Assembly: GCA_964194625.1 (NCBI GenBank)
Contig: CAXMNC010000202.1
Coordinates: 1,050-65,049, forward strand
DNA length: 64,000 nucleotides
DNA from: Acidiferrobacterales bacterium
GTDB taxonomy: Bacteria; Pseudomonadota; Gammaproteobacteria; Acidiferrobacterales; SPGG2
Direction of reading: 5' to 3'
Shown here: positions 35,842 through 59,744 of the stretch, piece by piece
Layout of the letters: each line of letters begins with the position of its first letter
Numbering within the stretch: the stretch's first letter is position 1
Notes under the pieces: model-generated
The model's database searches: none
Told to the model about the DNA's origin: nothing
What the model saw: only the letters and a program-made list of their open reading frames with translations
Translations under genes and position numbers: made by a program

Positions 35842-36003
35842 ATGACAAGAAGATACCAGCGATACAGCAAAGAATTTAAGGGGGAGATCAGTCAGAACCA
35901 GGGCACCGAGCTTTTCATTCATGGGCGCGACGGGCGTATCCCAGAAAAAAGGGTGGAAGTTCGCTATTCACCCGGTCTTATAGGGATCCGCCGCGTCTCG
36001 TAA
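35842..36003 (+). other. 53-codon ORF with good RBS; C-terminal half resembles a DUF2188 fragment (possible gene remnant)
   Basis: AAGGAG at 35830-35835 lies 6 nt before the ATG. NQGTELFIHGRDGRIPEK resembles the conserved DUF2188 core. The last 36 nt overlap the 3' end of the convergent permease gene. Confidence 0.3.
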
Positions 36004-37143
36004 GCCGTCACCCAGAAAGTTAAACGCCAGTACCACGACAATCACGGGCACCACCGGTAACATCAGCCAAGGATAAAGCGCGACGACGTTTATATTCTGT
36101 GCTTCGGCGAGTAGCACGCCCCAGCTCGTGATCGGTGGGCGCAACCCCAGCCCTAAGAAACTGAGTGCAGTTTCCCCCAGAATCATGGCCGGAATAGACA
36201 GTGTCGCCGAGGCGATGAGATGGCTCATGAAGTTTGGCAACAGATGACGCGCGATCACGCGCGATGGCCGTGCCCCCATCAACACCGCGGCAGTGCAAAA
36301 ATCTTCTTCGCGCAACGCCAGAAGTTTGGAGCGCACCGCCCGCCCCAGTCCGGTCCAGTCGATGAGACCAAGGATCACGGTGATACCCAGGAATACACCG
36401 ATCGGGCTCCACGTCACCGGCAGTGCCGCCGACAGTGCCATCCATAGCGGTAACTCCGGAAAAGAGCGGATGATCTCGATTAGGCGCTGAATAACGCTAT
36501 CCACCCACCCGCCATAGTAGCCCGCCAGGCCGCCTAGCGTAAGACCAAGTACGAAACTGATGGTGATGCCAAGCAATCCCACGATGAGTGAAATGCGCGC
36601 ACCGTAGATCATTCGTGAAAGCACATCTCGACCCAAGCGATCGGTGCCGAGAATGAACGCGGTGCCGCCAGCCGCCGGACACACCAAATGGAGGCGCCCG
36701 GCGAAGACACCCCAGAACATGTACTTATCCCCCTGACAGAAAAACCGAAGCGGATATACAGTATTTTTATCTTCGTCATACTCCCGCCTGAGTGTTTCCA
36801 TATTCAACCGATAGTTGAATCTGTAGACGAACGGGCCGATAAACTCTCCGTCATGAAACAAGCGAACCTTTTGCGGTGGGGCGAAAATAAAATCAGTGTG
36901 TCGCGTGTGCAGTTCGTAGGGGGCCAGTACCTCGCTTATAAGTATGGAGCCGTACATGACGATAAGGATCACACCGAATACCACCGCTAGCCGATGTCGC
37001 TTCAGACGCCACCACATCATGCGCCACTGCGATGCGGCATAGTAACGCTCCTGTTCTGGTGTAAGCTCCTCGATGCTATAGGGGTTGAACGGCGCAGTAG
37101 AGACGAAATGCTCTATCCCATCGCCGGTGCGTTGCTCAGTCAT
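35968..37143 (-). CDS. ABC transporter permease (DppC/OppC/YejE-like)
   Basis: 391 aa and polytopic, with an extended N-terminal periplasmic loop. The EAA-like region is CTAAVLMGARPSRVIARHLLPN. Its start overlaps the upstream permease stop by 4 nt. Confidence 0.85.
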   Translation of the reverse strand: MTEQRTGDGIEHFVSTAPFNPYSIEELTPEQERYYAASQWRMMWWRLKRHRLAVVFGVILIVMYGSILISEVLAPYELHTRHTDFIFAPPQKVRLFHDGEFIGPFVYRFNYRLNMETLRREYDEDKNTVYPLRFFCQGDKYMFWGVFAGRLHLVCPAAGGTAFILGTDRLGRDVLSRMIYGARISLIVGLLGITISFVLGLTLGGLAGYYGGWVDSVIQRLIEIIRSFPELPLWMALSAALPVTWSPIGVFLGITVILGLIDWTGLGRAVRSKLLALREEDFCTAAVLMGARPSRVIARHLLPNFMSHLIASATLSIPAMILGETALSFLGLGLRPPITSWGVLLAEAQNINVVALYPWLMLPVVPVIVVVLAFNFLGDGLRDAADPYKTG

Positions 37144-38138
37144 CGTCGCAATCCCCCATGCAGACGAATCCTTGGGTCGAGCGTCGCCAAGGCCAAGTCC
37201 GAAAGAAACATACCAACAACGGTCAATAGCGATAGGAACATCAGGAATGAGCCGGCAAGATACATGTCCTGACTACGGAGCGCGTTCAATAGCATCGGCC
37301 CTGTCGTCGGCAGGGACAACACAATAGACACGATGGCAGCGCCGGAGACGACTTGCGGTAGCAAGTTTCCAATGTCGGCGATAAAGGGATTTAGCGCCAT
37401 GCGCAGTGGATATTTCATCAATAGCCGAAATGGAGGCAGACCTTTGGCGCGTCCCGTAATGACATATTGCTTTTGCAATTCATCGAGCAGGTTCGCCCGC
37501 AATCGTCGGATCATGCCCGCCGTACCCGATGTCCCGATGACAACAACGGGAATCCACAAGTGTTCGAGCACAGACAAAAACTTATCCCAGCTCATCGGCT
37601 GGCCGACATAGGCTTGGTCCATGAGTCCGCCAATAGAAGTGCCGAATACGGCATTGGCAACATAGAGCAATACCAACGCCAGCAGAAAGTTGGGTGTCGC
37701 CAGCCCTAGAAAGCCTAAGAATGTAAGCCCGTGATCAGTCCAGCTGTACTGATGTGTGGCTGAGTAGATCCCGATTGGAAATGCCACCACCCAAGTAAAT
37801 AAAATCGTAGAAAACGAGAGCAGAAACGACAGAAATAATCGATCACCGACGACCTCGGATACTGGCAAGTCGTATTCAAATGAATATCCGAAGTCGCCTT
37901 GCAGCATCCCAGTAAACCAAGTGAAGTACTGCACAATGAACGGCTTATCGAGACCGTATTGTTTACGGAGGAAGGCGACCTTTTCCTTGCTGGCGGTCTC
38001 TCCTTGGCTTTCGAGCTCGGCGATATAGCTAGTTAGATAATCGCCTTCTGGAAGTTGGATGATCCCAAAAATCAGAATGCTGATTACCAGCAGGGTGGGA
38101 ATCATTACCAACACTCGGCGGACCAAAAAATCGAACAT
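37140..38138 (-). CDS. ABC transporter permease (DppB/OppB/YejB-like)
   Basis: 332 aa. MFDFLVRRVLVMIPTLLVISILIFGIIQL is a typical OppB/DppB N-terminus, and YVITGRAKGLPPFRLLMKYPLR is the EAA loop. Confidence 0.85.
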   Translation of the reverse strand: MFDFLVRRVLVMIPTLLVISILIFGIIQLPEGDYLTSYIAELESQGETASKEKVAFLRKQYGLDKPFIVQYFTWFTGMLQGDFGYSFEYDLPVSEVVGDRLFLSFLLSFSTILFTWVVAFPIGIYSATHQYSWTDHGLTFLGFLGLATPNFLLALVLLYVANAVFGTSIGGLMDQAYVGQPMSWDKFLSVLEHLWIPVVVIGTSGTAGMIRRLRANLLDELQKQYVITGRAKGLPPFRLLMKYPLRMALNPFIADIGNLLPQVVSGAAIVSIVLSLPTTGPMLLNALRSQDMYLAGSFLMFLSLLTVVGMFLSDLALATLDPRIRLHGGLRR

Positions 38139-38195
38139 TCAACACCACCGCTGGCGGCACTCGTGCCGCGCCGTTATTGCCATTTGGAGATGGCC

Positions 38196-40124
38196 CTAGT
38201 TCTTGGCTTCCATTTGGGCGCCCGCAAACCAGAAGGTGTCGGGTTTGTAGATGCCAAAATATGCGCCGGGTTCCCAATTATAGACACCCTTTTGGGGCAC
38301 ATTATGTAGTCGCCGGCTAACCACCACTGGTTGCGGTACAGCGGCAACCAGGCCAATAGAGAACATCTGCTCGGTGTTAATCTCAAGCATCTGCCGCCAG
38401 ATTTCCTCGCGGGTGCGAAAATCGGATGCCTTTATCCAGGCTGCGTTAAGCTGTAGAAGTTTCTTCGCGGCTGGTAGGTCCACCGGCTCACCGGCAACGC
38501 CGCCAGTTTCGTAGAACTGGCCCCACTTTGGCCACTGTAGTTGTTGCTGGCTCGTCGGCGCTAGCGCTTGCGGACTGGTATTGGCCGTTGGTAGGGCATT
38601 CTCCAAGCCACCCCATACGGACATCAGAGTTTCGCCGGTGAAGACGCGATTGCGAAATACCTCTCGTTGTATGGGTTTGGAAAACAACTTTATACCTGCC
38701 TTCAACCAGCTATCGTGAATCAACTCCAGCACATCAGTCTGCTCGGTGTCCTCGCCCGCCGTTTCAATCACGATCACCATTGACCTTCCATCCGGGAGTA
38801 GCCGGATACCGCGGTTGTCACGCTTCGTTAGGCCCATCTCATCCAGCAATGCATTAGCAGTAGCAAGGTCAAATTGCGCCCAAGACGTGCGATATTCTGG
38901 ACGATAAAGTGGACCGCTGCCATGGACAGAATTATTGCCTTCGGTGGCGAGACCGTAATAGAGCACCTGATTGAGCTCGTGCCGATTGGTTGCCAGAGAC
39001 AAAGCGCGTCGGAAACGCACATCGCGAAAGAGTTTGCGCCACACCGTGTCATTGGCGTTCAGGTTAGGAAACAGGGCCACGTGTGCACCCTTTGTCGTTA
39101 CCCACAATCTTACTTCACTATTCGTGCGCTTCGCGCTTTTCTTCAGAAAGGTGTAGTCACCGAATTTTAGGTACCGTGCCTGTAGATCGCTTTCGCCAGC
39201 CCCTGTCTTAGCGGCAATCAGTTTGCCATCAGCAATATGCATAATTACACGATCGATATAGGGCAGTTGCTGTCCCTGAGAATCAATACGGTAGTAATAG
39301 GGGTTGCGCACAAATATAAAGCGTTCGGATGGCCCTCGCGTGGTATTTATCCATGGCTGCAGGGTCGGATAGTCGGGATTATTGTTTTTGTATGGCGCAT
39401 CCATGCGTGTGTGTAGTGCCGACCAAGCATGTTGGCCGGCGGCACGGACCTTCTTCGCTAACTCGGTTGCATCGGCATAGCGCACATGGAATTGCTTCAG
39501 ATAATGCGAAGGACAATAGATAAAAAACGGCCGCGAGCCCGCAAGCGCCGGCAAGAAAAACGGATTGGGCTTCTTCCAACTGTAACGTACAGTCAAGCTA
39601 TCGATCACTTCGAACTTAGGGGGTTCGCCGTCTACCAATAGCTCTTTGGATACGCCGAAGGGCGATAGGTCTGGATTGTTGGTAATGTCCTCCCAGTGAT
39701 AACGAAAGTTCTCGGTCGTAAATGGATGCCCGTCGGACCACTTGTGTCCCTTGCGAATATGAAATGTAAATACACGTCCAGCCTCGACATCAACGCGTTC
39801 GAGAATATCAGGGACGATCTCAAACTCTTCGTTATAGCCCACGAGCCGCGCGTAACCGTAGACAACCGCCATACGTACATCTTTGGTTCGCGCCATGAGC
39901 ATACGCAACTCACCGCCGTGCTGGCCTGTCGATTTATCGGCACTATCTAGCGCCACCACCATCGGGTTTTCAGGTAACCGCTGCTCAATGGGCGGTAGTT
40001 CACCGCGGGCAACCTGGTCCGCCAACGCTGGCGAATCGACGAAGCCCCCCGCCCCAACCCTTACCGGGTTTATGGCGAGCACCGTGGCAATGCAAAGTGC
40101 TAGCGATTGAGTTGACCTTATCAC
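38196..40124 (-). CDS. ABC transporter substrate-binding protein, family 5 (large, YejA/OppA-like)
   Basis: GTG 40124 overlaps the upstream TGA (GTGA), giving a 642-aa protein with a signal-peptide-like start [25 protein letters not shown]. The ORF extension to 40232 overlaps the ATPase gene. Confidence 0.85.
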   Translation of the reverse strand: MIRSTQSLALCIATVLAINPVRVGAGGFVDSPALADQVARGELPPIEQRLPENPMVVALDSADKSTGQHGGELRMLMARTKDVRMAVVYGYARLVGYNEEFEIVPDILERVDVEAGRVFTFHIRKGHKWSDGHPFTTENFRYHWEDITNNPDLSPFGVSKELLVDGEPPKFEVIDSLTVRYSWKKPNPFFLPALAGSRPFFIYCPSHYLKQFHVRYADATELAKKVRAAGQHAWSALHTRMDAPYKNNNPDYPTLQPWINTTRGPSERFIFVRNPYYYRIDSQGQQLPYIDRVIMHIADGKLIAAKTGAGESDLQARYLKFGDYTFLKKSAKRTNSEVRLWVTTKGAHVALFPNLNANDTVWRKLFRDVRFRRALSLATNRHELNQVLYYGLATEGNNSVHGSGPLYRPEYRTSWAQFDLATANALLDEMGLTKRDNRGIRLLPDGRSMVIVIETAGEDTEQTDVLELIHDSWLKAGIKLFSKPIQREVFRNRVFTGETLMSVWGGLENALPTANTSPQALAPTSQQQLQWPKWGQFYETGGVAGEPVDLPAAKKLLQLNAAWIKASDFRTREEIWRQMLEINTEQMFSIGLVAAVPQPVVVSRRLHNVPQKGVYNWEPGAYFGIYKPDTFWFAGAQMEAKN

Positions 40125-42046
40125 TGTTTCAATTCTGAAAGTAACGATCGGCGTGCGCGCACAAAATGCCCCTCTCCTAGATCGACAAACTCTGGTGGTG
40201 CAGTTCTCTCTACGCCAAATGGCGTCGGCCATGCGGCGGGATCAGATACCCGACCTTCCATCAAGGCAGCGAGATCGAGCTTTTGGCTTAGATCAGTGCG
40301 TGGAACGGCCGCCAGCAATCCACGGGTATAAGGATGTACTGGGTCGCGAAACAGAATCTCACGCGGCGCGACCTCCACCAAATACCCGGCGCACATCACG
40401 GCAATGCGGTCTGCCATATAGTCTACGACGGCTAAATTGTGCGAAATAAAGAGATAGGTCAACCCCAACTCTGCCTGCAGGTCTTTCAGTAGGTTTAGGA
40501 TCTGCGCCTGCACCGATACATCCAGCGCCGACACCGGTTCATCACAGATTAACAAGTCTGGGTTTAGCGCAAGCGCCCGCGCTATCCCAATGCGTTGCCT
40601 CTGGCCTCCCGAAAAGCTATGTGGATAGCGCGACAGAAAGCGTGGATCAAGGCCAACCTGGCACATCAACTCTTTGACAATACCCACTCGGCGTTCGCGA
40701 CTACAGACATCATGTATGGTGAGGGGCTCACTAACGATGTCATACACAGTCATACGTGGATTTAGCGAGCCAAAGGGATCTTGGAATATAAACTGAATCT
40801 TTCGTCGAAACGCGATAAGTTCCGAATCACGCAGGGACGTCAGGCATTCAACCTTGCCGCGATTGTTATAAAGGACTTCACCTGCATCAGGTTCAATTGC
40901 GCACATAATAATCTTACTCAAAGTGGTCTTACCGCAGCCACTTTCTCCTACGAGTCCCAGGCATTCCCCGCGCTTTATCGAAAAACTGACGTCGCTAAGC
41001 GCCTGCACGTAAAACGTGGGCGCCCTAGCGAAAAGCGCACCCTTTCGAATTCCGAAGCATTTGCTGACGTTCTTCACTTGCAGCAATGGACCGGCAGCAT
41101 CCGCATCCGCATCCGCCGGCCACGATTCTCGATCCGTTAGGTACCCACCAGCCTCATGTTTCACCTCCCGGATAGGGGTCAAGCGCTCGTTGGCCTTCAT
41201 ACCGATCCGCGGGACGGCGCGCATGAGTGACTTTAGGTAGGGATGTTGGGGATCAGAAAAAACACTTGTCAGGCTACCGCGCTCCATCACTTTACCGTGA
41301 TAGATAACGACTACCTCCTCGGCCATATTGGCGACCACGCCAAGATCATGCGTGATGAGCAACACGGTCATGCCGAGTTTAGCCTGTAGGTTTTTTATAA
41401 GGCTGAGTATTTGTGCTTGCACTGTAACGTCGAGCGCGGTGGTGGGTTCATCTGCGATCAGCAACGCCGGGTGACATACAAGCGCCATTGCGATCATGGC
41501 CCGTTGGCGCAGTCCGCCAGAAAGCTCAAACGAGTATGTATCTAGTCCGCGCTGCGGATCAGGAAAACCGACCATGCCCAACATCTCAACCACGAGTCGG
41601 CGTGCTTCTACGCGATCGACATCACGGTGTAGTAACAATGCCTCCGTAACCTGATCTCCAATCGTGTGCAATGGCGACAACGAAGTCATGGGTTCTTGAA
41701 ATATCATGGAAATCCGACCACCGCGGATCGCTCGCATCTGCGCACCGCTGGGATTCATACCCGCTATGTCACAAGTGCCATTCCCGTTTGTCGTCGAGTA
41801 ACCTTTGCCCTGGCGCTGGGGATCATTGAATAGAATTTCACCGGTGGTAATACGCGCAGATTTCGGCAATATGCCCATGATGGTCTGTGCTATCACCGAC
41901 TTACCCGAGCCGGACTCGCCGACTAGGGCCACGGCAGCACCCTCACGAATGTCGAAAGAGACACCGTCAACAGCACGAATGACATCGCGACTGTGTAGCA
42001 CAAACTCAATTTTGAGGTCGCAAACTTGTAGCAACGGATTAGTCAT
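40121..42046 (-). CDS. Fused double ABC ATPase (DppD-DppF / YejF-like)
   Basis: Two complete cassettes: GESGSGKS...[15 protein letters not shown]...[12 protein letters not shown] and GESGCGKT...[15 protein letters not shown]...[12 protein letters not shown]. Start ATG 42046 ([15 protein letters not shown]). Confidence 0.9.
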
Positions 42047-42548
42047 TCGAATGCACCGGTGGCTGCTTGATGGTGCCATCTACATCAATACCAAGGGCGG
42101 CAAGATTGCTTGCCGTGGTTCGGCTCAATAATAGGTCGTTAGCATGGGCGCTAGTAGCGGCAAGACGGGCGATGTCTTGGAACCCTTCGAGTCGGGAATC
42201 CAACTTGAGCCGTTTGTTGTCGCTCCTGAGGGCCATTTGCATCCACCCCGATGATGATTCCTTGCGCGTCGAGTAGTACTCCAGCTTCAGCTCCGTTAGC
42301 TCCTCCCAATTTAAGCGAGTTGCACCGGGTTTGGCTGAGATCTCATTGTGGTCCACGGTGATACGCCGTCGATGACAAAGTATGGTGTGCATCCCATAAC
42401 CGAAAAACAATGCGGCCAGCAGTAACAGAATGATCAATGGTACAAGCGTCAGCGAGACCAGTAACACTGGCACGACCGTAAGAATCAACCCCGCTCCCGC
42501 CCGGACATAGTCGCCGGCGAGGCGATTCGGCGGGTAACGATAGGTCAT
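42039..42548 (-). CDS. Small membrane protein: two TM helices + PH-like soluble domain (hypothetical)
   Basis: 169 aa from ATG 42548 (ATGA overlap with the upstream stop). AGLILTVVPVLLVSLTLVPLIILLLLAALFFGYGM forms a hairpin of two helices. This is followed by RRRITVDHNEISAKPG...LKLEYY...MALRSDNKRLKL, reminiscent of bacterial PH (YdbS/T-like) domains. Confidence 0.55.
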   Translation of the reverse strand: MTYRYPPNRLAGDYVRAGAGLILTVVPVLLVSLTLVPLIILLLLAALFFGYGMHTILCHRRRITVDHNEISAKPGATRLNWEELTELKLEYYSTRKESSSGWMQMALRSDNKRLKLDSRLEGFQDIARLAATSAHANDLLLSRTTASNLAALGIDVDGTIKQPPVHSND

Positions 42549-43309
42549 TCTGTCCACATAGCCTCCCGGGCGTTTAGCCAACGTACAGCCGGGTGCATCT
42601 GTGTTCGTTCCAGGAATCGTTCCAGAAATTCCCAGCACCCTGGATCATGGTCCAGATGGTGGGTCAATAATCCCGTAGGTTCAGTTTCGTCGGCGCCACG
42701 CTCACGTCGCGCGTTGAGATGCGCCACCGTTTCGGCCAGTGCCTTATCCAGCCCGACAAAACGGCAGGTGCGACGCCAGTTGATAAGATCAATGTGACAA
42801 TTCACCTGGCGCAGGCCCGGCACGGCTTCCGCCGCCGCGCGCGGCCGAAAGGTAGACAGGCCTATTAAACCAAGATTTGGTAACTCCGACAAAAGTGCTG
42901 TATCTATTCGGTTCCACGGCGGCACCAGGATAGGTAAGGCTCGGTCCGAGAAAAGCTTTGATAGCCGGTCGCGGCCGCCAGTTAGTTCGGCGATGACACG
43001 ATCATGCGCACGGTATCGATCAAATTCGGTCGCTTTCGCACCGGCCGGGGCATGGTTACGGTGCGCATAGCCATGTTGCAACACGCTGACGTCCGGACAA
43101 CCCTCAAGTGTTTGCGGCAGCGCCGGGCTCGCTTTCGTTGGAACCACGGCAAGCGCCACTGGGACGTCCATATCTACGCTAAGGCCCAGTAGACGATCGA
43201 GCGACGGCGTACTATCCACCGCGTCGTCGTCGCGCCACCAGAAGGTGGCCATTCGGCTCGATTCGGCCCAACGGTCTAATTCGTTATCGAGTGCGGCCCA
43301 GCTGCACAT
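42545..43309 (-). CDS. Polysaccharide deacetylase-like protein (NodB/DUF2334-like)
   Basis: 254 aa. FWWRDDDAV (TFDDG-like metal/catalytic Asp motif) and LQHGYAHRNH (HxxxH-like). The alternative start at 43252 would remove the 34-nt overlap with the upstream gene. Confidence 0.55.
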   Translation of the reverse strand: MCSWAALDNELDRWAESSRMATFWWRDDDAVDSTPSLDRLLGLSVDMDVPVALAVVPTKASPALPQTLEGCPDVSVLQHGYAHRNHAPAGAKATEFDRYRAHDRVIAELTGGRDRLSKLFSDRALPILVPPWNRIDTALLSELPNLGLIGLSTFRPRAAAEAVPGLRQVNCHIDLINWRRTCRFVGLDKALAETVAHLNARRERGADETEPTGLLTHHLDHDPGCWEFLERFLERTQMHPAVRWLNAREAMWTE

Positions 43310-44457
43310 AACAAAACATCTCCGAAAAAATGGTTTTTCACAAGCCGTGCCGTAGTTAACGCCCCGCTCATATCGATTGTCGACAATTGGCGGGCAGGGG
43401 CGCTGTTGGCAGCATCGATCGCTTGCGCGAGTCGTGCGGGTGTTAGCGCATCGTCGGTCACGACCTCGATTAGACCATGCAATGCCAACATACGTGCGCG
43501 CACGGCTTGTTCTTGTTCTCGTTCGTCTGCATAGGGCACGATGACCGCGCGTGCGCCGGCAGCAAGAACCTCTAGCATCGTATTGTAACCACCTTGGGAA
43601 ACAGAAACTGCGCAGTTTCTAAGCAGTACGGGGAAGTCAGTACGATTCCGTTCAACCACCAGGCCGGTATCGGCCTGTGCCTTTAAATTTGCAAATCGTT
43701 GCGGCGAAAGATTGGGACCGACCAAGATGCGCCAAGGTGCCTTTGCTAACACGGAAAGTGGCCGGGCCTCGATCGCAGTACGCAAGACATGCTCGCCGAA
43801 GGCACCGCCGCCTGCCGACACAATGACCTCAGCGCTACCAAGGTCGCTTGTTGGTTTTGGAGCATCACGCGCCTTGACGTATCCCGTGTAACGTAGTTTG
43901 TGCTCGATTTGATGTGCGAGCGGAAAGGTGGTGTCGAATGGCACAAACTTTGGGTCACTGTGCACAAGCACAAGATCAAAATAGCGATCGACTAAATCGA
44001 CAATCTCCTCATTGCGACCAGGCCTACGCTTTGCCTCCAGTACGTCTCGTACCGAGCAGACGACGCGCGGGCGTGGCCGCCGCTCATAAGCCGCCTCCAG
44101 CAAAGGCAACAACTCAAACCGCAATAGGCCTCGACCAAATGGAAATGTCTCGATCAGTAACACATCCGGCTGGCATCGTGCGAATGCTGTAAGCAGCACA
44201 TCTCGCCGCCTGCTTTTCCAACCATCATCCACCGGCCACCCTTCTTCATCGACTAATGTCTGGTAGTGCATATCATCCGCGCGTACAGCCGGAAGTTGTA
44301 CGAACGTCTCACAGCCGGGATCCAAGCCCGGAATGGGTAGCCCACCAGATACGTAAATCACATCAACACCAAGCTTGCGCAGCGCACGGCTAATAGCTGC
44401 AACTCGCCACTGGTGGCCGGTACCCATCAGGTGCTGCACGTAACACATGACCTTCAT
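43276..44457 (-). CDS. GT-B glycosyltransferase, MurG/GT28-C-terminal-like (COG4671-like), paralog 2
   Basis: 393 aa. N-terminal VQHLMGTGHQWRVAAISRAL and C-terminal VSQGGYNTMLEVLAAGARAVIVP parallel the motifs of the 47431-48654 product. Confidence 0.7.
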   Translation of the reverse strand: MKVMCYVQHLMGTGHQWRVAAISRALRKLGVDVIYVSGGLPIPGLDPGCETFVQLPAVRADDMHYQTLVDEEGWPVDDGWKSRRRDVLLTAFARCQPDVLLIETFPFGRGLLRFELLPLLEAAYERRPRPRVVCSVRDVLEAKRRPGRNEEIVDLVDRYFDLVLVHSDPKFVPFDTTFPLAHQIEHKLRYTGYVKARDAPKPTSDLGSAEVIVSAGGGAFGEHVLRTAIEARPLSVLAKAPWRILVGPNLSPQRFANLKAQADTGLVVERNRTDFPVLLRNCAVSVSQGGYNTMLEVLAAGARAVIVPYADEREQEQAVRARMLALHGLIEVVTDDALTPARLAQAIDAANSAPARQLSTIDMSGALTTARLVKNHFFGDVLLCAAGPHSITN

Positions 44458-45044
44458 TGCTGCACCAACCGGATGTTATATCGCTCCAGACTAAGTTTTC
44501 CGTTGCCGGACAGCCCAAACAGGTGAGCCCTGTCCCACTTCAAACGATGTATGGACTTTTCAGCCATGTCCCAACCGGTCGCAAGTGCCAGGGCAGCGCG
44601 TATCACTCCCTTGTGGGTTACCGCGATAACCGCGTGTCCAGTTTCCCGGACATCACCGACCCAATCTTGCAAACGTAGCTGCACCATTCTCGGGCTTTCC
44701 CCCTGGGGCGGCCGAAAATCCAGACCGCGAGCCTCATTCTCGGCCATATCAGCCCCATTCGCCGATCGCAACTCGGCTAATGTATGGCCCTCCCATGTAC
44801 CCCAATTCATTTCGGTCAATCGCGGCTCTGCCTGCACACTCGACGCGCCCAGTAGTTTTGCCGTTCCCATAGCCCGAGACAACGGACTAGCTGTCCATTG
44901 ATAGTCACGGAATTCTGCCGGTAGCGACCAAGTCGATACTTCCGCGCGCCCAGCGTCGCTCAATTCGATATCGGCCTGACCTTGAATCCGACCCTCCGCA
45001 TTCCAAACCGTCGGGCCATGGCGAATAAACAGCAACGGAATCAT
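44454..45044 (-). CDS. Histidine phosphatase family protein (phosphoglycerate-mutase-like)
   Basis: 196 aa. It has the LFIRHGPTVWNAEGRIQG (RHG) motif and a second catalytic His in AVTHKGVIRA. There are 4-nt overlaps with both neighbours. Confidence 0.8.
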   Translation of the reverse strand: MIPLLFIRHGPTVWNAEGRIQGQADIELSDAGRAEVSTWSLPAEFRDYQWTASPLSRAMGTAKLLGASSVQAEPRLTEMNWGTWEGHTLAELRSANGADMAENEARGLDFRPPQGESPRMVQLRLQDWVGDVRETGHAVIAVTHKGVIRAALALATGWDMAEKSIHRLKWDRAHLFGLSGNGKLSLERYNIRLVQQ

Positions 45045-46180
45045 GGTCTACACAGGCTTTGGATGACTCGATTTATGGTCTCGGTCGCGCTCGTCAAACC
45101 ATGCGCGCGCGCGGCGAGATCCCGTGCCGCTAGACCCATCTGTCGAATCCTTGCTGGATCTTGCAAAAGCGAACCCAAGGCGCTGGCAAATGCCCGTACA
45201 TCACTCGGCGGGACAATCACACCGCTTTGATCATGACGGACAATATCGGCAACCCCCACCGTATGCCCCACCACCGCCGCCATCCCGGCCGCCTGTGATT
45301 CCAACAGCGCCATGCCAAACGCCTCGTTGACGGCTGGCCAAACAAAAATGTCAGCCGCAGCATAAAATGGCAACAACGACTCCGGCGACTGCAACCCGGC
45401 AAATACGACACGATCCCCGGATTCCCTGAAGGCGGCTTCTACCGCTAGGCGCGCATCGCCGTCCCCTACAATGAGTAAGCGCCACGGTCGATCGGCAAGC
45501 TCCCTTAGTGCCACGCCAAGCATTTGATAGGAGGCTAGCTTGTCACCTTCGCGCATCATCGCTACTGCCAACAACCACGGGACCTCAGAATCCAAATCGA
45601 ACCTTTGTGCTAGCGCGCGTCGGCACTCGCCACGATCACCGTTGACGGCATAACGTGACGTGTCTACGAAAGGGCCGAGATGCACTAATTGCTTAGGATC
45701 CTTGAGTAGTGGACGTACACAGTCAATATCTTTGGAATTAAGAGCAAGCACGGCATCGGCATGAGCAATGGCATGGCCCACCGCATCATGACCTATGCGC
45801 CACGGCCCGCCGGATTGTTTCGGTGCATAACAAGTCTCCGCCACAACATAAGGGATACCGAGCCCCTGGCTCACCCTTGGACCCAGCCAATCGGGCGCCT
45901 TATGGTAAAGATGGTAGGTAAACCACATGGCAGGACGATGTGTCGGCGGCTCCATTCTGTAACGCCGCAATAGCCGATCAGCGAGGCGTGTGCCGATACG
46001 ACATAAGCGCTGCTGCCGGCAGCTATCACCCTTCCCCTCCCAAGTACGAAAGCGGGAAGCTAGGTGCACATCGTGACCGGCTTCGACCAAGACCCGCTTG
46101 AATAGACGCGCTATCTCCCGGTCGCCGGAAGGCACCGAATCCATCGGTGGTTTCATCGGCGCATAATAGGCGATCTTCAC
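45041..46180 (-). CDS. Glycosyltransferase family 4/1 (GT-B)
   Basis: 379 aa. MKIAYYAPMKPP...PSGDREIAR N-terminus and the C-terminal donor-binding signature EAFGMALLESQAAGMAAVVGHTVGVADIV. Confidence 0.8.
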   Translation of the reverse strand: MKIAYYAPMKPPMDSVPSGDREIARLFKRVLVEAGHDVHLASRFRTWEGKGDSCRQQRLCRIGTRLADRLLRRYRMEPPTHRPAMWFTYHLYHKAPDWLGPRVSQGLGIPYVVAETCYAPKQSGGPWRIGHDAVGHAIAHADAVLALNSKDIDCVRPLLKDPKQLVHLGPFVDTSRYAVNGDRGECRRALAQRFDLDSEVPWLLAVAMMREGDKLASYQMLGVALRELADRPWRLLIVGDGDARLAVEAAFRESGDRVVFAGLQSPESLLPFYAAADIFVWPAVNEAFGMALLESQAAGMAAVVGHTVGVADIVRHDQSGVIVPPSDVRAFASALGSLLQDPARIRQMGLAARDLAARAHGLTSATETINRVIQSLCRP

Positions 46181-47421
46181 GACTCTGAGCCTTGTAGCGA
46201 AAGTTGAAACTTGGCTACCAATCGACCCGCGTTACCTTCAAAGGAAAAATGTTCGCGCACGCGTCGATATCCGGCAGCGCCCAGTTGCACACGCGTACTA
46301 GGTTCTACGATCAACCGCTCCAGCGCGTCACACAGTGCCCTCGAATCCCCCTCCGAAACAAGTAGACCGGTTTGACCATGGTCGATAAGTTCCGGTATGG
46401 CGGAAACCCGGGTAGCAACACAAGCCAAGCCTTGGCTCTGCGCCTCCACGAGTACGTTTGGCAGTCCGTCTCGATCACCATCACGCGCAACCCGGCACGC
46501 CAAGGCAAATATGTCAGCCTTGCCATATTGCCGTAGTACTTCATCGTGGGGTTGTGGTCCCAACCACGAGATCCTGTCTTCAAGACCACTGGCTTTGGCT
46601 TGTGCCATTAGCCGTGGCAGCAACGGCCCGCCGCCGACATGCACAAAACGCCAGTTCAGTTCGGCCGGCAGCGCCGCCAACGCCGCGAGTAAATCAGCAT
46701 AACCCTTTTTTTCGACGGTGCGACCGACTGACAAAATCGTCACCGACTTGCCGTTAGTAAGGCCGTCGTACCGGGAACATTGTCGATCGGGCGTTGGAAA
46801 GCGTTTGAAATCTACACCGTGATAAAGGAGTTCCACCTGTTCTGCCGCCGGTGCTAACTTACAAAGATGGTCACGATTGACAGACGTACAAGTCACCACC
46901 CAATGACACTCTGCTAGTTTCTCGCGCTTCTCCCAATCTGGGCTTGTCCAAATATCTCGTGCATGGGCAGAGCAACTCCAACGCAGGCCGCTTATTAGAC
47001 TTGCGTAACGCACCACCGATGCGGGCGTATGTAGAAAATGAGCATGAAGATGTCCTACCTCACCCGGCAGTTCTCGCGCCAGCACCAGCGCTTGTCCGAA
47101 TCGCCGCACCCGATTAGGCGTTGGATCACGCCGCAGGTCGCGCAACCAAGCCCGCAACGCTCTGCGATATCCGGGGTAGCATCTGGCCGCGCGCCAACCC
47201 CGCCAAACACGGCGCGGTTGTCGATAGAGATACTCAGGCAAGTAGTTGACCGGCGCCCTAATCTCGCGATGCAGCGGGTGCACCGACCGGTCTGTCGGGT
47301 TACGAAGGGAAATGATGCGAATATCTAACGCATGCGCCTCCAGAGCGCGAATCTCCTGCGCAATGAAGGCCTCGGATAATCGCGGATAACCCTTAACTAC
47401 GAAAGCGACAGCACGACGCAC
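46177..47421 (-). CDS. Glycosyltransferase family 4/1 (GT-B)
   Basis: 414 aa. DGLPNVLVEAQSQGLACVATRVSAIPELIDHGQTGLLV is a classic GT4 EX7E region. Confidence 0.8.
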   Translation of the reverse strand: MRRAVAFVVKGYPRLSEAFIAQEIRALEAHALDIRIISLRNPTDRSVHPLHREIRAPVNYLPEYLYRQPRRVWRGWRAARCYPGYRRALRAWLRDLRRDPTPNRVRRFGQALVLARELPGEVGHLHAHFLHTPASVVRYASLISGLRWSCSAHARDIWTSPDWEKREKLAECHWVVTCTSVNRDHLCKLAPAAEQVELLYHGVDFKRFPTPDRQCSRYDGLTNGKSVTILSVGRTVEKKGYADLLAALAALPAELNWRFVHVGGGPLLPRLMAQAKASGLEDRISWLGPQPHDEVLRQYGKADIFALACRVARDGDRDGLPNVLVEAQSQGLACVATRVSAIPELIDHGQTGLLVSEGDSRALCDALERLIVEPSTRVQLGAAGYRRVREHFSFEGNAGRLVAKFQLSLQGSES

Positions 47422-47430
47422 AGCTGCACA

Positions 47431-48654
47431 CTAAAGCCCCTGGGTGGCGACGCTGACCTCGTTTGCGAACATATCGGGCGCCCACACGTCTACCATCCGG
47501 TAAATGTTATCAAGCCCATCGAGCAGTCCCGGCACGACGACGGTTGATGGGCGGTTTTGATGTGGCAACTCACGTAGCGCACGGGCCATGCGACGAGCAT
47601 TGCGACCATACTCATCGCTAAGCATCGTCACCAATCCCAGCTGCTGCGCTCGGCTCGCACGAATGTATTGTTCCATCCGCGGCTTTCGTCGGGGGACAAT
47701 CAGCGCTGGTTTGTCCAACGAAAGAATCTCACAGAAGGTATTGTACCCACCCATGGCCACGACACCGGCCGCGTCTCTCATCAGATCTTCTACGTGCGTA
47801 TCAAAAGTTATCGCTTTGACACGTTCGAGGCGCTCGACGCGTTTTTGGAAATTCTCACGCCGCCGCGGCGCCATAAAGGGCCCGAACACAAGCAAGGCCG
47901 AGTGCGGAATCTCGGGGTCTGCCTCGTACGCGCGCAATACCCAGTCAATAAGTGACTCACCATCACCCCCACCGCCGGTGGTCACCAACACATAGGGTTC
48001 ATCGAACTGTGGCTTGGACATGGCGTCGGTGCCGTTCTCCGAGGGATTGCGTCTCAGATAACCGGTATAGGTGATTTTTGCGCGCACTGTCTCCGGCAAA
48101 TCAATGCCCGCGAGGGGATTACAGATTTGCGGCAATCCGTATACCCAAATCTCATCGTACAGATCGCGCAGGGCTGGTATGGGCTGCTTACGTTCCCACT
48201 CACGAGCCAGCAACACAGGATCGTCCATAACATCACGCAGCCCTAAGACGCACTGAGTACCGTTTTGCTTCAGCATTCGCAGGGTCTCGTGGATCTCACC
48301 GCGCAGACCAAGGGGTTCCTTATCCACCAGAAACAAGTCGGGATTAAACACCTTGGCAGTGTGCTGGATGATGGACGCGCGCATCTCCAAGACCTCGCCA
48401 ATGTCGATATGGAGGCTCAAGGAGGAATATTCACCGTTGCGCAGCTTGATCACCCCGGGGATGCGAACAAAATCCACCCGGCTCCCGAAATCGAAGCTAC
48501 CGATGATGGGCGATCCGGAGAGGATTAGTACGGACAGCCCTTTACGTCGCGCCGCCAGCGATTGAGCGATAGCATGACACCGCCGTAAGTGCCCCAACCC
48601 AAACGTATCGTGGCTATAGATCAAAATCCGGGCATTTTTAGTGTTATTTCGCAT
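47431..48654 (-). CDS. GT-B glycosyltransferase, MurG/GT28-C-terminal-like (COG4671-like), paralog 1; first gene of the operon
   Basis: 407 aa. ILIYSHDTFGLGHLRRCHAIAQSL and VAMGGYNTFCEILSLDKPALIVPR. Confidence 0.75.
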   Translation of the reverse strand: MRNNTKNARILIYSHDTFGLGHLRRCHAIAQSLAARRKGLSVLILSGSPIIGSFDFGSRVDFVRIPGVIKLRNGEYSSLSLHIDIGEVLEMRASIIQHTAKVFNPDLFLVDKEPLGLRGEIHETLRMLKQNGTQCVLGLRDVMDDPVLLAREWERKQPIPALRDLYDEIWVYGLPQICNPLAGIDLPETVRAKITYTGYLRRNPSENGTDAMSKPQFDEPYVLVTTGGGGDGESLIDWVLRAYEADPEIPHSALLVFGPFMAPRRRENFQKRVERLERVKAITFDTHVEDLMRDAAGVVAMGGYNTFCEILSLDKPALIVPRRKPRMEQYIRASRAQQLGLVTMLSDEYGRNARRMARALRELPHQNRPSTVVVPGLLDGLDNIYRMVDVWAPDMFANEVSVATQGL

Positions 48655-48979
48655 ATCCCGGTATCCTCCTGTGGGGACAGACGATCAAATATACCCGACG
48701 GTTGCAAAAAAGTCTCCGACAGATCACGATTGCTCCGCGCTAAGCCCATGCTTCTAGGGCCTCGTTCAAACCCGGAACGGTCTGCGCCCGATGGGGATAC
48801 ATCCTCCATGCTGTCGATCGAGGTGTGCTGCCTGGCCACGTGGTTGTCGCAGGCTACGTTCGCTCGGCCACTACTAAATGGTGTGGCCAAATTCAGGTTG
48901 ATAGCGGTCAAAACGTGGAAATAGCGTAGCCAGCGATTAGAATCTCAGGTTTTCAATCTATTCAGACACAGAAATCACA

Positions 48980-49942
48980 ATGAAGGCCGCTCAAATTGTT
49001 GCGCCGCGTCGGTTCGAGATCGTCGACGTGGACCATCCTGATATCAAACGGGAAAAGGCAGGAAGCGTTCTAATTAAGACATACCGCAGTGCGCTGTGCG
49101 GCAGCGACATGCCACCGTTTGTGCAAGATCGGCCCGCGGCCGACTATCCCTTATTGGCAGGCCTGTCGATACATGAATGCATAGGCACCGTCGCCGAAAC
49201 GAATTCGGGGCGTTTCAAAGAAGGTGATGAGGTCCTGTCTATCCCGCGCGACCGAAATGGGCTTGCCGAGTATTTCATTTCTAGCGAAGACCTGACGGTT
49301 GCCTTACCGGACGTGGAAAGCAAGGATCAAATGGTGATGGCACAGCCGCTCGGTACCGTTATCTGGGCCTGTCGCAAACTGGGCAATCTGATCAACCGCG
49401 ATGTTGTGTTAGTTGGACAGGGGCCGATGGGGCTGTTAATGGCAAGCATGCTAAGCAATCTCGGCGCAAAGACGATTGTCGCCGCTGATCTTGTAGAGTA
49501 TCGGTTGCAGGTAGCGAACAAAATGGGAGCGACGCATACCGTGAACGTGGCCAGCACAGATTTGACGGCTGCGGTGGAAGAGATCACTGATGGGCGCATG
49601 GCCGATCTTGTTGTGGAGATCGTTGGGCACCAGACGGAAACGATCAATACCTGTCTACGCCTGGTTAAGCGCCACGGTACTGTGCTTGCCTTTGGTGTAC
49701 CGGACCACAAGATCTATGACTTTCGGTACAGTGATTTCTTTCGCAAGAACGCAACTTTCATCGGATCAGTGGGGCTAGATATGCAAAACGACGTACCGCT
49801 GGCTATGGATATGCTCAGACAAGGCCGAATAGATGTTTCGCCTATGATCACTCACCATCTACCGTTCACAGACGCACAGCTCGGGTTTGAATTATCACTC
49901 CACAAAAAGGATGGAGCGATTAAGGTTATTTTTGACTATTAG
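48980..49942 (+). CDS. Zinc-type MDR dehydrogenase (threonine/sorbitol dehydrogenase-like)
   Basis: 320 aa. It has the ALCGSD and HECIGTV zinc-ligand motifs and the Rossmann motif LVGQGPMGLL. Confidence 0.8.
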   Translation: MKAAQIVAPRRFEIVDVDHPDIKREKAGSVLIKTYRSALCGSDMPPFVQDRPAADYPLLAGLSIHECIGTVAETNSGRFKEGDEVLSIPRDRNGLAEYFISSEDLTVALPDVESKDQMVMAQPLGTVIWACRKLGNLINRDVVLVGQGPMGLLMASMLSNLGAKTIVAADLVEYRLQVANKMGATHTVNVASTDLTAAVEEITDGRMADLVVEIVGHQTETINTCLRLVKRHGTVLAFGVPDHKIYDFRYSDFFRKNATFIGSVGLDMQNDVPLAMDMLRQGRIDVSPMITHHLPFTDAQLGFELSLHKKDGAIKVIFDY

Positions 49943-49990
49943 TGGGAACTATTTTCCTAACCTGATGACTATTAACCTAGAATACTCACA

Positions 49991-51133
49991 ATGAAACCAC
50001 GTTTATTCACGCCGGGTCCTACAGAAATTCCACAACGCGTCATCACGGCTATGACTGCGCGCATGCCGCATCTAAGAAGCGCCGGATTCAGGACCATATT
50101 CCGGGATGTATCAGAAAAACTTAAGGCGTTTTTTAAGACCAAGCATGAGGTGCTGATCCTCACTGCATCCGGTACCGGCTCGATGGAAGCGGCGCTCATA
50201 AACTTTATGCGTCAAGGTGATAAGGTTATCAGTATCGAGGGTGGAAAATTCGGCAGGATATGGACCGACATCGCGCGCACCTACGGGCTGAACATCGTTA
50301 GGCTTGAGGTGCCGTGGGGTGACACGCCTACCACAGATCAGGTCAGACAGATCGTCGCCCAACACTCGGATGCGGCTGCCGTCTTGGTTACCCATAGCGA
50401 AACTTCCACCGGCACGGCGTTTGATGTGAAAGGCATTGCCGAGGTAGTCCACCAACAAAGTGATGCGCTTGTGATTGTGGACGGTATAAGCTCGATCGGA
50501 GTTCTGCCGTTTTACAAAGATGATTGGAATATCGACGTTTGCGTAGCTGGTTCACAGAAAGGTGCCATGATCCCTCCCGGCCTCTCGTTTATGGCGGTTA
50601 ATGAGCGTAGCTGGCAGAGGGCGGAGGCTAGTGACTTCCCGAAATATTACTTTAGTTGTCTCAAGGCAAGGGAATCCCTTGAAAACGACGACACGCCATT
50701 CACGTCGGCGATCTCTCTGATCATAGGATTACGCGAATCATTGGGCCTGATGTTAGAGCGGGGCATGGAATATCACTGGGAAGAATATGCGCGATTGGCG
50801 CACTCAATGCGCGCTGGCGCGCAGGCGATTGGACTGGAACTATTCTCAAAACGACCAGCGGATTCAGTGACGGCCATCAAGGTTCCACCAGAAATCGACG
50901 GGCGACGGCTCATAGACTGTATGCGCGACAAATATGGCGTTGACGTGGCCGGCGGACAGGATCATTTGAAAGGAAAGATCTTTCGTGTTGCACAGATGGG
51001 TTACTGTGATCATCTAGATATGGTTGGCTTTGCTTCGGCCATGGAGTTCGCGTTACGAGACTGTGGTTGGCAGTTCGAACTGGGAATGGCGGTTGCAGCC
51101 ATGCAAGGTGCTTACACCTCACAGCACGCGTAG
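49991..51133 (+). CDS. Class V aminotransferase (serine-pyruvate / alanine-glyoxylate type)
   Basis: 380 aa. MKPRLFTPGPTEIPQRV, TASGTGSMEAAL, and the PLP-lysine context VAGSQKGAMIPPGLSF. Confidence 0.85.
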   Translation: MKPRLFTPGPTEIPQRVITAMTARMPHLRSAGFRTIFRDVSEKLKAFFKTKHEVLILTASGTGSMEAALINFMRQGDKVISIEGGKFGRIWTDIARTYGLNIVRLEVPWGDTPTTDQVRQIVAQHSDAAAVLVTHSETSTGTAFDVKGIAEVVHQQSDALVIVDGISSIGVLPFYKDDWNIDVCVAGSQKGAMIPPGLSFMAVNERSWQRAEASDFPKYYFSCLKARESLENDDTPFTSAISLIIGLRESLGLMLERGMEYHWEEYARLAHSMRAGAQAIGLELFSKRPADSVTAIKVPPEIDGRRLIDCMRDKYGVDVAGGQDHLKGKIFRVAQMGYCDHLDMVGFASAMEFALRDCGWQFELGMAVAAMQGAYTSQHA

Positions 51134-51150
51134 CGAAAAGCGCACCGAGC

Positions 51151-51810
51151 ATGGGTAAGCCCACGTGCAACATATGTGACGGACACAGTTTCGAACTGGG
51201 ACCGAATGAGCGGAAAGCGAGCACTGGGGAACTGCCCCGATGTAGCAATTGTCGATCCCTGGAGAGGCACCGACAACTTCGTCAAGTCTATGCTCAATTA
51301 CCGGCCAATTATCTGGCCAGCCTAGAAGTTCTACAGTTGAGCCCCGACATCGGCGTAGACCCGAGCTGGTTCAAGTCCTATGAGGTATCAGTGTTTGGCG
51401 GTGAAAACTCGCTAGATCTGGAAGCTATCAATCGTCCGGACGCTCGTTATGATCTTGTGATCTGCAACCACGTTCTCGAACATGTGGCGGATGACCGCCA
51501 AGGTTTGCGAGAATTGATGCGGGTTGTTCGCCCACAAGGACTCTTGCAGATCACGGTACCCTCACCCTATACACGAGCAAAGACCGTAGATTGGGGTTAT
51601 GCCAAACCAGAAGCCCACGGTCATTACCGCGGCTATGGCAAGGACTTCATCCATCTCTTTCGAGAGGCCCGCCCAGACGTTGCGCCGATTCAAATCGAAG
51701 CTATCGATGAGGTCACGGGCGCAGGCGGCTATGTTTACTTCTGGGCACCGGACCAAGGATTGAACGATAGAATTCAAGCTTGGATTTCGAACCCCACTGT
51801 CACCGGTTAG
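51151..51810 (+). CDS. SAM-dependent methyltransferase with N-terminal CxxC...CxxC zinc-ribbon
   Basis: The ATG at 51151 is preferred over TTG 51067, which overlaps the aminotransferase. CNICDGHSF...CSNCRSLERH, then YDLVICNHVLEHVADDRQGLRELMRVVRPQGLL (Methyltransf_11-like). Confidence 0.7.
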   Translation: MGKPTCNICDGHSFELGPNERKASTGELPRCSNCRSLERHRQLRQVYAQLPANYLASLEVLQLSPDIGVDPSWFKSYEVSVFGGENSLDLEAINRPDARYDLVICNHVLEHVADDRQGLRELMRVVRPQGLLQITVPSPYTRAKTVDWGYAKPEAHGHYRGYGKDFIHLFREARPDVAPIQIEAIDEVTGAGGYVYFWAPDQGLNDRIQAWISNPTVTG

Positions 51811-51827
51811 CGGGGCCGGGCAAGAGA

Positions 51828-53183: not shown

Positions 53184-53216
53184 TAGAGTGCTGAAAACAA
53201 ATTCCTTAGCAGTCTG

Positions 53217-53849: not shown

Positions 53850-53996
53850 GGATTGTCCACGAACTTGCCGCAGAGTGGGGTCTGATTGGGTGGGTAACAC
53901 CGCCCGACATTCCCGGGCGCGGCTGTCGTATTTGGCCATACTCAAAGTATAGATCAGGTTTCCGGCCGTGAGAGGGCCGATCCTTACAGTCCATTG

Positions 53997-54461: not shown

Positions 54462-54480
54462 GATAACCTCTAACCTGCGC

Positions 54481-59692: not shown

Positions 59693-59744
59693 CGCGTGCT
59701 CTCCTAGTTGGCTCTTGCTAACTACTCTTGGGCACCCCATTAAA

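Follow-up and report, generated by a model that had tools for sequence, protein, structure and literature searches.

A conserved proteobacterial gene cluster joining glycosyltransferases to an Opp/Dpp-type importer, with an MsbA-like exporter and a cyclic-nucleotide-binding protein nearby

The stretch of DNA analysed here, hereafter the window, comprises 64,000 nucleotides (nt) of contig CAXMNC010000202.1 from an Acidiferrobacterales bacterium. At 35968-48654 it carries an operon of eleven genes in which four glycosyltransferases, a phosphatase and a deacetylase are joined to a complete Opp/Dpp-type ABC importer. This operon is one half of a larger neighbourhood. A survey across species showed the neighbourhood to recur in its 80 best-matching loci, and the family extends to at least several hundred proteobacterial species. 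The core of the neighbourhood is formed by three of the glycosyltransferases, here called GT28a, GT4a and GT28b, together with the importer, an MsbA-like exporter and a protein that binds cyclic nucleotide monophosphates (cNMP), often with a nucleotide cyclase. The parts are all of familiar types, and what sets this glycoconjugate biosynthesis and export cluster apart is the conserved importer embedded in it and the cNMP module. We propose, tentatively and at somewhat short of even chances, that a small amino-sugar glycoside, made in the cytoplasm, is exported and then recaptured by the importer of the operon.

Conserved clusters without an assigned function that span three proteobacterial classes under strong purifying selection are rare. 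This one joins three topics that are usually separate, namely cytoplasmic glycosyl transfer, an exporter-importer pair and cyclic-nucleotide signalling. The core version is carried on well-studied replicons by Sinorhizobium meliloti, Rhizobium leguminosarum and R. etli, which makes the question directly testable.

Conservation of the cluster

GT28b was aligned with four orthologues and used as the synteny anchor in a scan of one genome per GTDB species. The scan gave 582 matches confirmed by tblastn, of which the best-scoring 80 loci were analysed by tblastn of the window proteins against them; 34 of these loci have full 10-kb flanks. The best 80 of the 582 loci span alpha-, beta- and gammaproteobacteria, with carriers that include Sneathiella, Dongia, Inquilinus, Rhizobium grahamii, Rhodoferax, Comamonadaceae, Ectothiorhodospiraceae, Competibacterales and Arenicellales. 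Many homologues were found for each of the eleven open reading frames (ORFs), also for the 169-residue one that lacks a Pfam match.

In 33 of the 34 full-flank, species-representative loci, orthologues of the importer genes are found no more than 10 kb from GT28b. Colinearity with the window over at least nine genes is seen in 23 of the 34, and the exporter or the cNMP-binding gene is also present in 26. The identities across loci are high, about 72-73% for the permeases (a median of 73% across 58 loci for the DppB/OppB-type one), 65% for GT28a (median), 63% for the ATPase and 57% for the binding protein. The linkage of glycosyltransferases and importer also persists where the genes are rearranged, as on pRle248d of R. 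leguminosarum and pSymB of S. meliloti, which have them in the order importer, GT28a, GT4a, GT28b, exporter and cNMP-binding gene. The linkage is no local chance. With the original prediction it had been said that the idea would fall if the glycosyltransferase and ABC blocks turned out to be unlinked in relatives; since orthologous importer genes adjoin the anchor in nearly all full-flank loci, from three proteobacterial classes, the linkage stands.

All four accessory genes, which encode the fourth glycosyltransferase (GT4b), the phosphatase, the deacetylase and the 169-residue membrane protein, are missing from seven loci of the rhizobial type, and a core form can for this reason be told from an extended form. 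In 31 loci GT4b is accompanied by both the phosphatase and the deacetylase. The accessory module is gained and lost together, but it is not strictly all-or-none, because loci L007, L009 and L031 (metagenome-assembled genomes of Acidiferrobacterales, of a Nitrospiraceae-labelled organism and of Muproteobacteria) retain the gene of the 169-residue protein without a detectable deacetylase gene, unlike the window. GT4a was detected in 63 of the 80 loci.

The importer could be an ordinary peptide or nutrient importer that merely rides on the transcript of an unrelated glycan pathway. Opp/Dpp importers are abundant and replicons of the pSymB type are crowded with them, and a different Opp-type importer also follows the unrelated msbA2 operon of S. 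meliloti. Against this, the genes next to the glycosyltransferases are orthologous and not merely paralogous in the 33 genomes, rearranged loci included, and the junction between the glycosyltransferase and importer halves, where the genes of the 169-residue protein and the ATPase meet, overlaps in several genomes, by 4 nt in L003 and 20 nt in L006 for example. We therefore regard co-location without a shared function as highly improbable.

Organization of the operon

An ORF reading of the window gave eleven ORFs between 35968 and 48654, minus strand throughout, which are the eleven genes that had been predicted:

47431-48654, minus strand: GT28a, GT-B glycosyltransferase of the GT1/GT28 type, first gene (PF04101, 32.4 bits, cut-off 22)
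46177-47421, minus strand: GT4a, retaining GT4 glycosyltransferase (PF00534, 104.7 bits; PF13692, 102.3 bits)
45041-46180, minus strand: GT4b, second GT4 glycosyltransferase, accessory module (PF13692, 88.9 bits; PF00534, 86.3 bits)
44454-45044, minus strand: histidine phosphatase, branch 1, accessory module (PF00300, 133 bits)
43276-44457, minus strand: GT28b, second GT-B glycosyltransferase of the GT1/GT28 type (PF04101, 43.1 bits, cut-off 22)
42545-43309, minus strand: putative CE4/NodB-fold deacetylase, 254 residues, accessory module (fold model and conserved residues)
42039-42548, minus strand: membrane protein of 169 residues, unannotated family (two predicted N-terminal transmembrane helices)
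40121-42046, minus strand: fused double ABC ATPase, 641 residues, OppD-OppF fusion, GsiA/YejF-like (PF00005 twice, PF08352 twice)
38196-40124, minus strand: family-5 periplasmic substrate-binding protein, 642 residues (PF00496, 190 bits)
37140-38138, minus strand: DppB/OppB-type permease (PF00528, PF19300)
35968-37143, minus strand: DppC/OppC-type permease with a long N-terminal extension (PF00528, PF12911 OppC_N)

When the start codons closest to the preceding stop are used, every junction listed in the original prediction is reproduced:

47422-47430, minus strand: GT28a/GT4a, gap of 9 nt
46177-46180, minus strand: GT4a/GT4b, GTGA, overlap of 4 nt
45041-45044, minus strand: GT4b/phosphatase, ATGA, overlap of 4 nt
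44454-44457, minus strand: phosphatase/GT28b, ATGA, overlap of 4 nt
43276-43309, minus strand: GT28b/deacetylase, overlap of 34 nt, or a gap of 23 nt if the alternative ATG at 43252 is used
42545-42548, minus strand: deacetylase/169-residue protein, ATGA, overlap of 4 nt
42039-42046, minus strand: 169-residue protein/ATPase, overlap of 8 nt, with the ATPase ATG at 42046
40121-40124, minus strand: ATPase/binding protein, GTGA, the GTG start of the binding protein at 40124 overlapping the ATPase stop
38139-38195, minus strand: binding protein/DppB-type permease, gap of 57 nt
37140-37143, minus strand: DppB-type/DppC-type permease, ATGA, overlap of 4 nt

Judged by this anatomy, the eleven genes are one tightly packed operon, as had been proposed. 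An AGGAGG ribosome-binding site lies about 10 nt ahead of the first ATG (48654), and from a reading of the sequence the operon promoter must be held in the following region:

48655-48979, no strand assigned: divergent intergenic region

On its minus strand a consensus scan gave no sigma-70 match. Within the block a simple consensus scan found no promoter-like site on the minus strand, and terminator-like matches were not above the expectation from shuffled sequence (18 against 13.7 +/- 4.0); both are weak evidence. The 57-nt gap between binding protein and permease has no unusually stable hairpin (z = -0.6), and Rfam and tRNA scans of the window gave no matches.

Glycosyltransferases

The prediction of four glycosyltransferases was borne out by Pfam profiles, with two enzymes of the GT1/GT28 kind and two of family 4. 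GT28a and GT28b both carry Glyco_tran_28_C above its gathering score, and GT4a and GT4b carry Glycos_transf_1 and Glyco_trans_1_4 domains above theirs. GT28a and GT28b are only 23-27% identical to each other. GT28a is the most conserved enzyme of the block (the median identity given above is across 55 loci). It has no significant match in the PDB by sequence, and an AlphaFold2 (AF2) model with a predicted local distance difference test score (pLDDT) of 80.5 shows a GT-B fold. The best Foldseek matches of the model are small-molecule GT1 UDP-glycosyltransferases (OleD, CalG1-4 and plant enzymes), while MurG ranks lower, so that the model places GT28a closer to small-molecule GT1 enzymes than to polymer synthases. 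For GT28b, profile matches in the PDB are YjiC, MurG and CalG. Identity with MurG was rejected for both, as GT28b reaches 28 bits against the cut-off of 250 for TIGR01133 and GT28a has no match. GT4a is under every NCBIfam equivalog cut-off, and GT4b is neither BshA nor MshA (72 and 63 bits against cut-offs of 274 and 462).

Phosphatase, deacetylase and the 169-residue protein

The predicted phosphatase is a member of His_Phos_1 and has the catalytic RHG motif at residues 8-10 (FIRHGPT, 6-12). CobC was rejected as its identity (102 bits against 163), and the protein is under all other equivalog cut-offs too.

The deacetylase had been predicted as such although it has no match to Pfam (Polysacc_deac_1 included) or NCBIfam at E <= 0.001, and a profile search of the PDB gave only an insignificant match, 3qbu. 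An AF2 model built from 34 homologues (pLDDT 95.7, predicted TM-score 0.92) has CE4 deacetylases and esterases and ArnD as its top Foldseek matches, with E from 2e-8 to 1e-4, probability 1.00 and TM-scores of 0.5-0.67 (3rxz, 7fbw, 2c71, 2c1g, 2y8u and 8t0j, the last being ArnD). The entry 3rxz is a mycobacterial polysaccharide deacetylase, and the other matches include acetylxylan esterases and peptidoglycan and chitin deacetylases. In the 34 homologues D27-D29 (WWRDDD), H79 and H83 (QHGYAH) are invariant, apparently matching the Asp-His-His metal triad of CE4 enzymes (DD in motif 1, HxxxH in motif 2). Fold and signature thus agree with the predicted activity, and because a sequence match to Polysacc_deac_1 is lacking the enzyme appears to be a divergent branch of CE4. 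It has no signal peptide and is for that reason predicted to be cytoplasmic.

An alignment of homologues of the 169-residue protein shows a conserved motif, YYSTRRDxxxGWMQ, and neither this protein nor any of its 58 homologues has a Pfam match.

The importer

As predicted, the final four genes together encode a complete Opp/Dpp-type importer. The ATPase has the two oligo_HPY tails of Opp/Dpp ATPases, the N-terminus of the binding protein after the GTG at 40124 is signal-peptide-like, as in Opp/Dpp binding proteins, and the two permeases are BPD_transp_1 proteins of the OppB and OppC types. No named importer could be assigned, since the equivalog cut-offs of GsiABCD, YejABEF, DppABCDF, OppABCDF, NikABCDE and CntABCDF were not reached. 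The ATPase scored 588 bits against 1077 for GsiA and 506 against 834 for YejF and is orthologous to neither, and the DppC/OppC-type permease is under all equivalog cut-offs (OppC, 170 against 433 bits). Other scores were 37 against 947 bits for OppA, 27.5 against 1005 for DppA, 60 against 393 for NikA and 37 against 800 for CntA; the importer proteins were all below the cut-offs of the CntA, CntC, CntD and CntF models.

The nearest solved structures to the binding protein are, in order, 5IPW from Thermotoga, SPH1118 from Sphingomonas, AgpA and chitin-oligosaccharide binders. SPH1118 and AgpA, an alpha-galactoside binder, are the nearest ones with a defined ligand. The classical proteins OppA, DppA and MppA match over short N-terminal stretches only. 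SPH1118 has pectin oligosaccharides as ligands and shows no binding of peptide mixtures (PMC9314435), and the related transporter YejBEF-YepA imports muropeptides, a glyco-cargo (PMC9790009). As the closest solved relatives of its binding protein bind sugars, the importer is probably not a peptide system, and a carbohydrate or glycoconjugate cargo seems at least as likely as a peptide.

The exporter, the cNMP-binding protein and the cyclase

The second half of the neighbourhood lies at 51780-57129 in the window and has these members:

54481-57129, minus strand: ABCB/MsbA-like exporter, 882 residues (PF00664, PF00005)
53997-54461, minus strand: stand-alone cNMP-binding protein, 154 residues (PF00027, 79.9 bits)
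53217-53945, minus strand: conserved protein of 242 residues without a known domain, orthologues in other loci
51780-53183, plus strand: class III adenylate/guanylate cyclase (PF00211, 105 bits, residues 279-452)

In 25 of the 34 full-flank loci the exporter gene is no more than 10 kb from the anchor. Its nucleotide-binding domain (NBD) is split by an insertion of about 300 residues, roughly 465-770, and in PDB alignments the segments on either side of it (to about residue 463 and from about residue 771) together match one NBD of P-glycoprotein or MsbA. The insertion sits between the part with Walker A and the Q-loop and the part with the signature and Walker B. The long form is kept in other loci and in R. 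leguminosarum, at 866-904 residues.

The cNMP-binding gene adjoins the exporter in the window, in rhizobia and in many other loci, and its product consists of the cNMP domain alone, without a helix-turn-helix or DNA-binding domain. Orthologues of the 242-residue protein, about 210-240 residues long, have the cNMP-binding gene on one side and the cyclase on the other in L001-L006 and in further loci. The cyclase, whose N-terminal 270 or so residues are unannotated, is present in 16 of the 34 full-flank loci, and in R. leguminosarum a cyclase immediately precedes the importer. For the exporter insertion, the 242- and 169-residue proteins and the cyclase N-terminus, Pfam scans gave nothing usable even at E <= 5.

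In L001/L002 GT28a, GT4a and GT4b adjoin the exporter, the cNMP-binding gene and the cyclase, and then follow aceK and unrelated genes. The gammaproteobacterial loci L003-L006 have a further conserved set upstream of the exporter, made up of an ABC-2 membrane protein, a small ABC ATPase and two proteins of about 235 residues (one with a weak N_methyl match), none of which is found in the window. In rhizobia a nucleotide-sugar dehydrogenase is located divergently upstream of the cluster (R. leguminosarum L087, 1968-3305, minus strand; S. meliloti L088, 1062-2495, minus strand). Its best NCBIfam matches are UDP-ManNAc and UDP-GlcNAc dehydrogenases, which hints at an N-acetyl-hexosaminuronic acid donor. 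In S. meliloti an FkbM methyltransferase is encoded just after the cNMP-binding gene (L088, 19460-20209).

A possible pathway of synthesis, export and recapture

If a glycoside is made, exported and recaptured, the pathway could run as follows. The enzymes, which have no signal peptides and are therefore predicted to be cytoplasmic, would use nucleotide sugars to make a small glycoside or a short oligosaccharide. Where the accessory module is present, GT4b would glycosylate a phosphorylated acceptor, the phosphatase would then strip off the phosphate, and the NodB-type enzyme would de-N-acetylate a residue of the N-acetylglucosamine (GlcNAc) type. The neighbouring ABCB exporter would carry the product over the inner membrane, possibly gated by cNMP via the small cNMP-binding protein, and the operon importer would retrieve the product, whether unchanged, loaded or processed, by means of its sugar-branch family-5 binding protein. 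The product may serve as a periplasmic solute, a signal or a carrier. We infer that the chemistry is cytoplasmic, and likewise the sequence of the steps, what each transporter carries and in which direction, and the role of cNMP.

Among the homology-assigned genes around the cluster there is no Wzx/Wzy flippase or polymerase, priming polyprenyl-phosphate glycosyltransferase, GT2 synthase or outer-membrane export component. This covers the window (with a few small flanking ORFs unscanned), the annotated rhizobial locus and the recurrent families of the 80 loci, and it fits with a small product handled by ABC systems. There is also a precedent in the msbA2 operon of S. meliloti, where cytoplasmic glycosyltransferases co-transcribed with an MsbA-like exporter give an exported glycan that is harmful if retained (PMC3687685, PMC12239276).

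Several points weigh against synthesis followed by export and recapture. The exporter is outside the operon in the window, 5.8 kb off and beyond four plus-strand genes, and about a quarter of the full-flank loci lack it within 10 kb. L001/L002 have GT28a, GT4a, GT4b and the exporter at 10001-13905 and no importer within 10 kb, where GT28b and the importer must be located elsewhere or be missing; this natural split could reveal which genes depend on which. The 80 loci are the best-scoring ones of the 582, with more distant relatives outside the sample. The top structural match of the binding protein, 5IPW, has no known ligand, and the likeness to sugar binders is at the family level only. The direction of transport and the cargo of exporter and importer are assumed. 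The original prediction recognised no characterised system with such a layout and none was found in the literature that we searched, the coverage of which is incomplete.

The original prediction had inferred a stoichiometric tie between a glycosyl-transfer pathway and uptake, and had left the choice between importing a substrate in order to glycosylate it and salvaging a secreted glycoconjugate. The tie and both mechanisms are conjectural. The presence of the exporter, the cNMP-binding protein and the cyclase in the conserved neighbourhood favours salvage. It is nevertheless conceivable that the importer supplies the enzymes with an acceptor from outside the cell (an environmental oligosaccharide, for instance, or a glycopeptide resembling a muropeptide, or a xenobiotic), that they elaborate or detoxify it in the cytoplasm, and that the exporter may expel the product. 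The importer shares the operon with the enzymes through overlapping junctions, the structural neighbours of GT28a are GT1 enzymes acting on imported or endogenous small molecules (the macrolide-inactivating OleD, for example), and Yej-type importers admit muropeptides and antimicrobial peptides (PMC9790009, PMC10128002). But four glycosyltransferases with a phosphatase and a deacetylase look like de novo assembly and not like one-step tagging, and the phosphatase step implies a phosphorylated acceptor in the cytoplasm. The identities of the permeases and GT28a (about 72% and 65%) across free-living sulfur oxidisers, rhizobia and marine bacteria also disfavour a niche-specific substrate, and we consider modification of an imported compound unlikely.

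A pathway for an envelope glycolipid is another explanation, in which the glycosyltransferases act on a membrane lipid in the manner of MurG, monogalactosyldiacylglycerol synthase and the GT4 glycolipid synthases, the MsbA-like exporter flips the glycolipid, and the importer retrieves the head group or serves turnover. PF04101, the C-terminal domain of MurG and monogalactosyldiacylglycerol synthase, is present in two of the enzymes, the best bacterial matches of the exporter include MsbA lipid flippases and it also matches ABCB4, ArnD, which deformylates a lipid-linked sugar, is among the fold matches of the deacetylase, and the operon encodes a small membrane protein. On the other hand none of the four glycosyltransferases has a predicted membrane anchor, the fold matches of GT28a favour soluble small-molecule enzymes over MurG, no acyltransferase or lipid-synthesis gene is conserved among the recurrent families of the 80 loci, and an importer with a periplasmic binding protein has no obvious role for a membrane lipid. 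This makes a glycolipid pathway quite unlikely in our opinion.

If the cluster does make, export and recapture its product, it would represent a new small-glycan economy of the Gram-negative envelope and give functions to four unannotated families, i.e. the divergent CE4 enzyme, the 169- and 242-residue proteins and the 300-residue insertion of the exporter. A more specific version is doubtful but deserves mention, a cyclic-nucleotide-gated shuttle in which the glycoside leaves through the split-NBD exporter and returns through the Opp-type importer, and which would define a new class of exported and recaptured glycans. The role of such a glycan might be that of a tunable osmolyte in the periplasm, of a signal, or of a carrier coming back with a load.

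Comparison with known systems

In function the S. meliloti msbA2 operon (SMb21188-SMb21191) comes closest. It likewise has glycosyltransferases and an MsbA-like exporter and no Wzx/Wzy, and its product is an unidentified glycan the export of which matters (PMC3687685, PMC12239276). It differs in that it starts with an acyltransferase and lacks the cNMP-binding partner, the phosphatase and the deacetylase. The 882-residue exporter of the window matches the msbA2 exporter over the ATPase domain only and is not its orthologue, and the window glycosyltransferases have no tblastn match at E <= 1e-3 in the 20-kb msbA2 region (pSymB 930000-950000). That the rhizobial homologue could itself be the msbA2 operon was rejected, as msbA2 is at about 938.3 kb on pSymB, mapped via a ChvI-bound fragment inside SMb21188, the first gene of the operon, and the homologous cluster is at about 831-845 kb. 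In the msbA2 region (L089, ~15.2-20.0 kb) there then follows an Opp-type importer with a binding protein, two permeases and a fused ATPase, which are distant paralogues of the window importer with about 24-39% identity. This could be a coincidence on a transporter-rich replicon or a recurring design.

The Nod-factor pathway (NodC-NodB-NodA with NodIJ) has, like the cluster, a cytoplasmic glycosyltransferase followed by a cytoplasmic CE4 de-N-acetylase and ABC export of a small glycoconjugate. It is unlike the cluster in that NodC is a GT2 chitin-oligomer synthase, NodA acylates, NodIJ is an ABC-2 exporter, and there is no importer. The window deacetylase (254 residues) has no sequence-level match to NodB or to PF01522 models. 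The accessory module also has a parallel in the synthesis of mycothiol (MshA-MshA2-MshB) and bacillithiol (BshA-BshB), where a GT4 enzyme acts on a (phospho)acceptor and dephosphorylation and de-N-acetylation of GlcNAc follow. MshB and BshB belong to the LmbE family whereas the window deacetylase is of CE4, and the cluster has three further glycosyltransferases. Membership in these pathways was rejected, with MshA scores of 69 and 63 bits against 462 and BshA scores of 60 and 72 against 274, and no Cys ligase was found in the conserved neighbourhood. By analogy, the chemistry of the accessory module would thus resemble that of MshA/MshA2/MshB and NodC/NodB without belonging to either.

In architecture the nearest systems are the staphylopine (Cnt) metallophore loci, which combine biosynthesis, an exporter and a re-uptake importer of the Opp/Nik family. 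Their opine synthesis enzymes are unrelated to glycosyltransferases, and no link to metal is evident in the cluster. Membership in the staphylopine and glutathione-importer systems was ruled out by the curated cut-offs. The carbohydrate importers of the Opp/Dpp type (those of SPH1118, AgpA and the chitin-oligosaccharide binder) and YejBEF-YepA share the family and the large binding protein of about 600-680 residues and demonstrate transport of sugars and glycopeptides within the family (PMC9314435, PMC9790009), but they serve catabolism or recycling and do not form part of a glycosyltransferase operon. The S. meliloti pSymB orthologue of the binding protein is distinct from both YejA (Q92T30) and YepA (Q92PT7) of PMC9790009. 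The genes of the Clr/cAMP regulon, in its published list, were considered as cluster members and rejected, as they lie at other loci.

The cluster may already have been characterised under another name, for instance as a 'redA' locus of S. meliloti. The S. meliloti orthologue of GT28a is named RedA in one UniProt entry (Q9X6W3), which implies an older genetic study, a label that we could not trace. Searches of full-text literature, in an incomplete library, found no study of the cluster, the NCBI and UniProt names are generic ('glycosyltransferase family protein', 'putative membrane-anchored protein', 'hypothetical protein'), and there is no NCBIfam equivalog for any of the eleven proteins. 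An earlier characterisation is in our view improbable.

Other genes of the window

Between the operon and the cyclase, at 48980-51810 on the plus strand, are a zinc-type alcohol dehydrogenase, a class V aminotransferase and a methyltransferase. This trio recurs only in the closest relatives, L007, L009 and L031, and may either extend the pathway in this lineage or have no connection with it. Three further genes look unrelated to the cluster, a DAO and GCV_T fusion resembling dimethylglycine or sarcosine oxidase (57245-59767, minus strand), a carbamoyltransferase (29495-31234, plus strand) and a HAD hydrolase fused to pentapeptide repeats (31659-33194, minus strand). An ORF of 1616 residues is located at 7721-12571.

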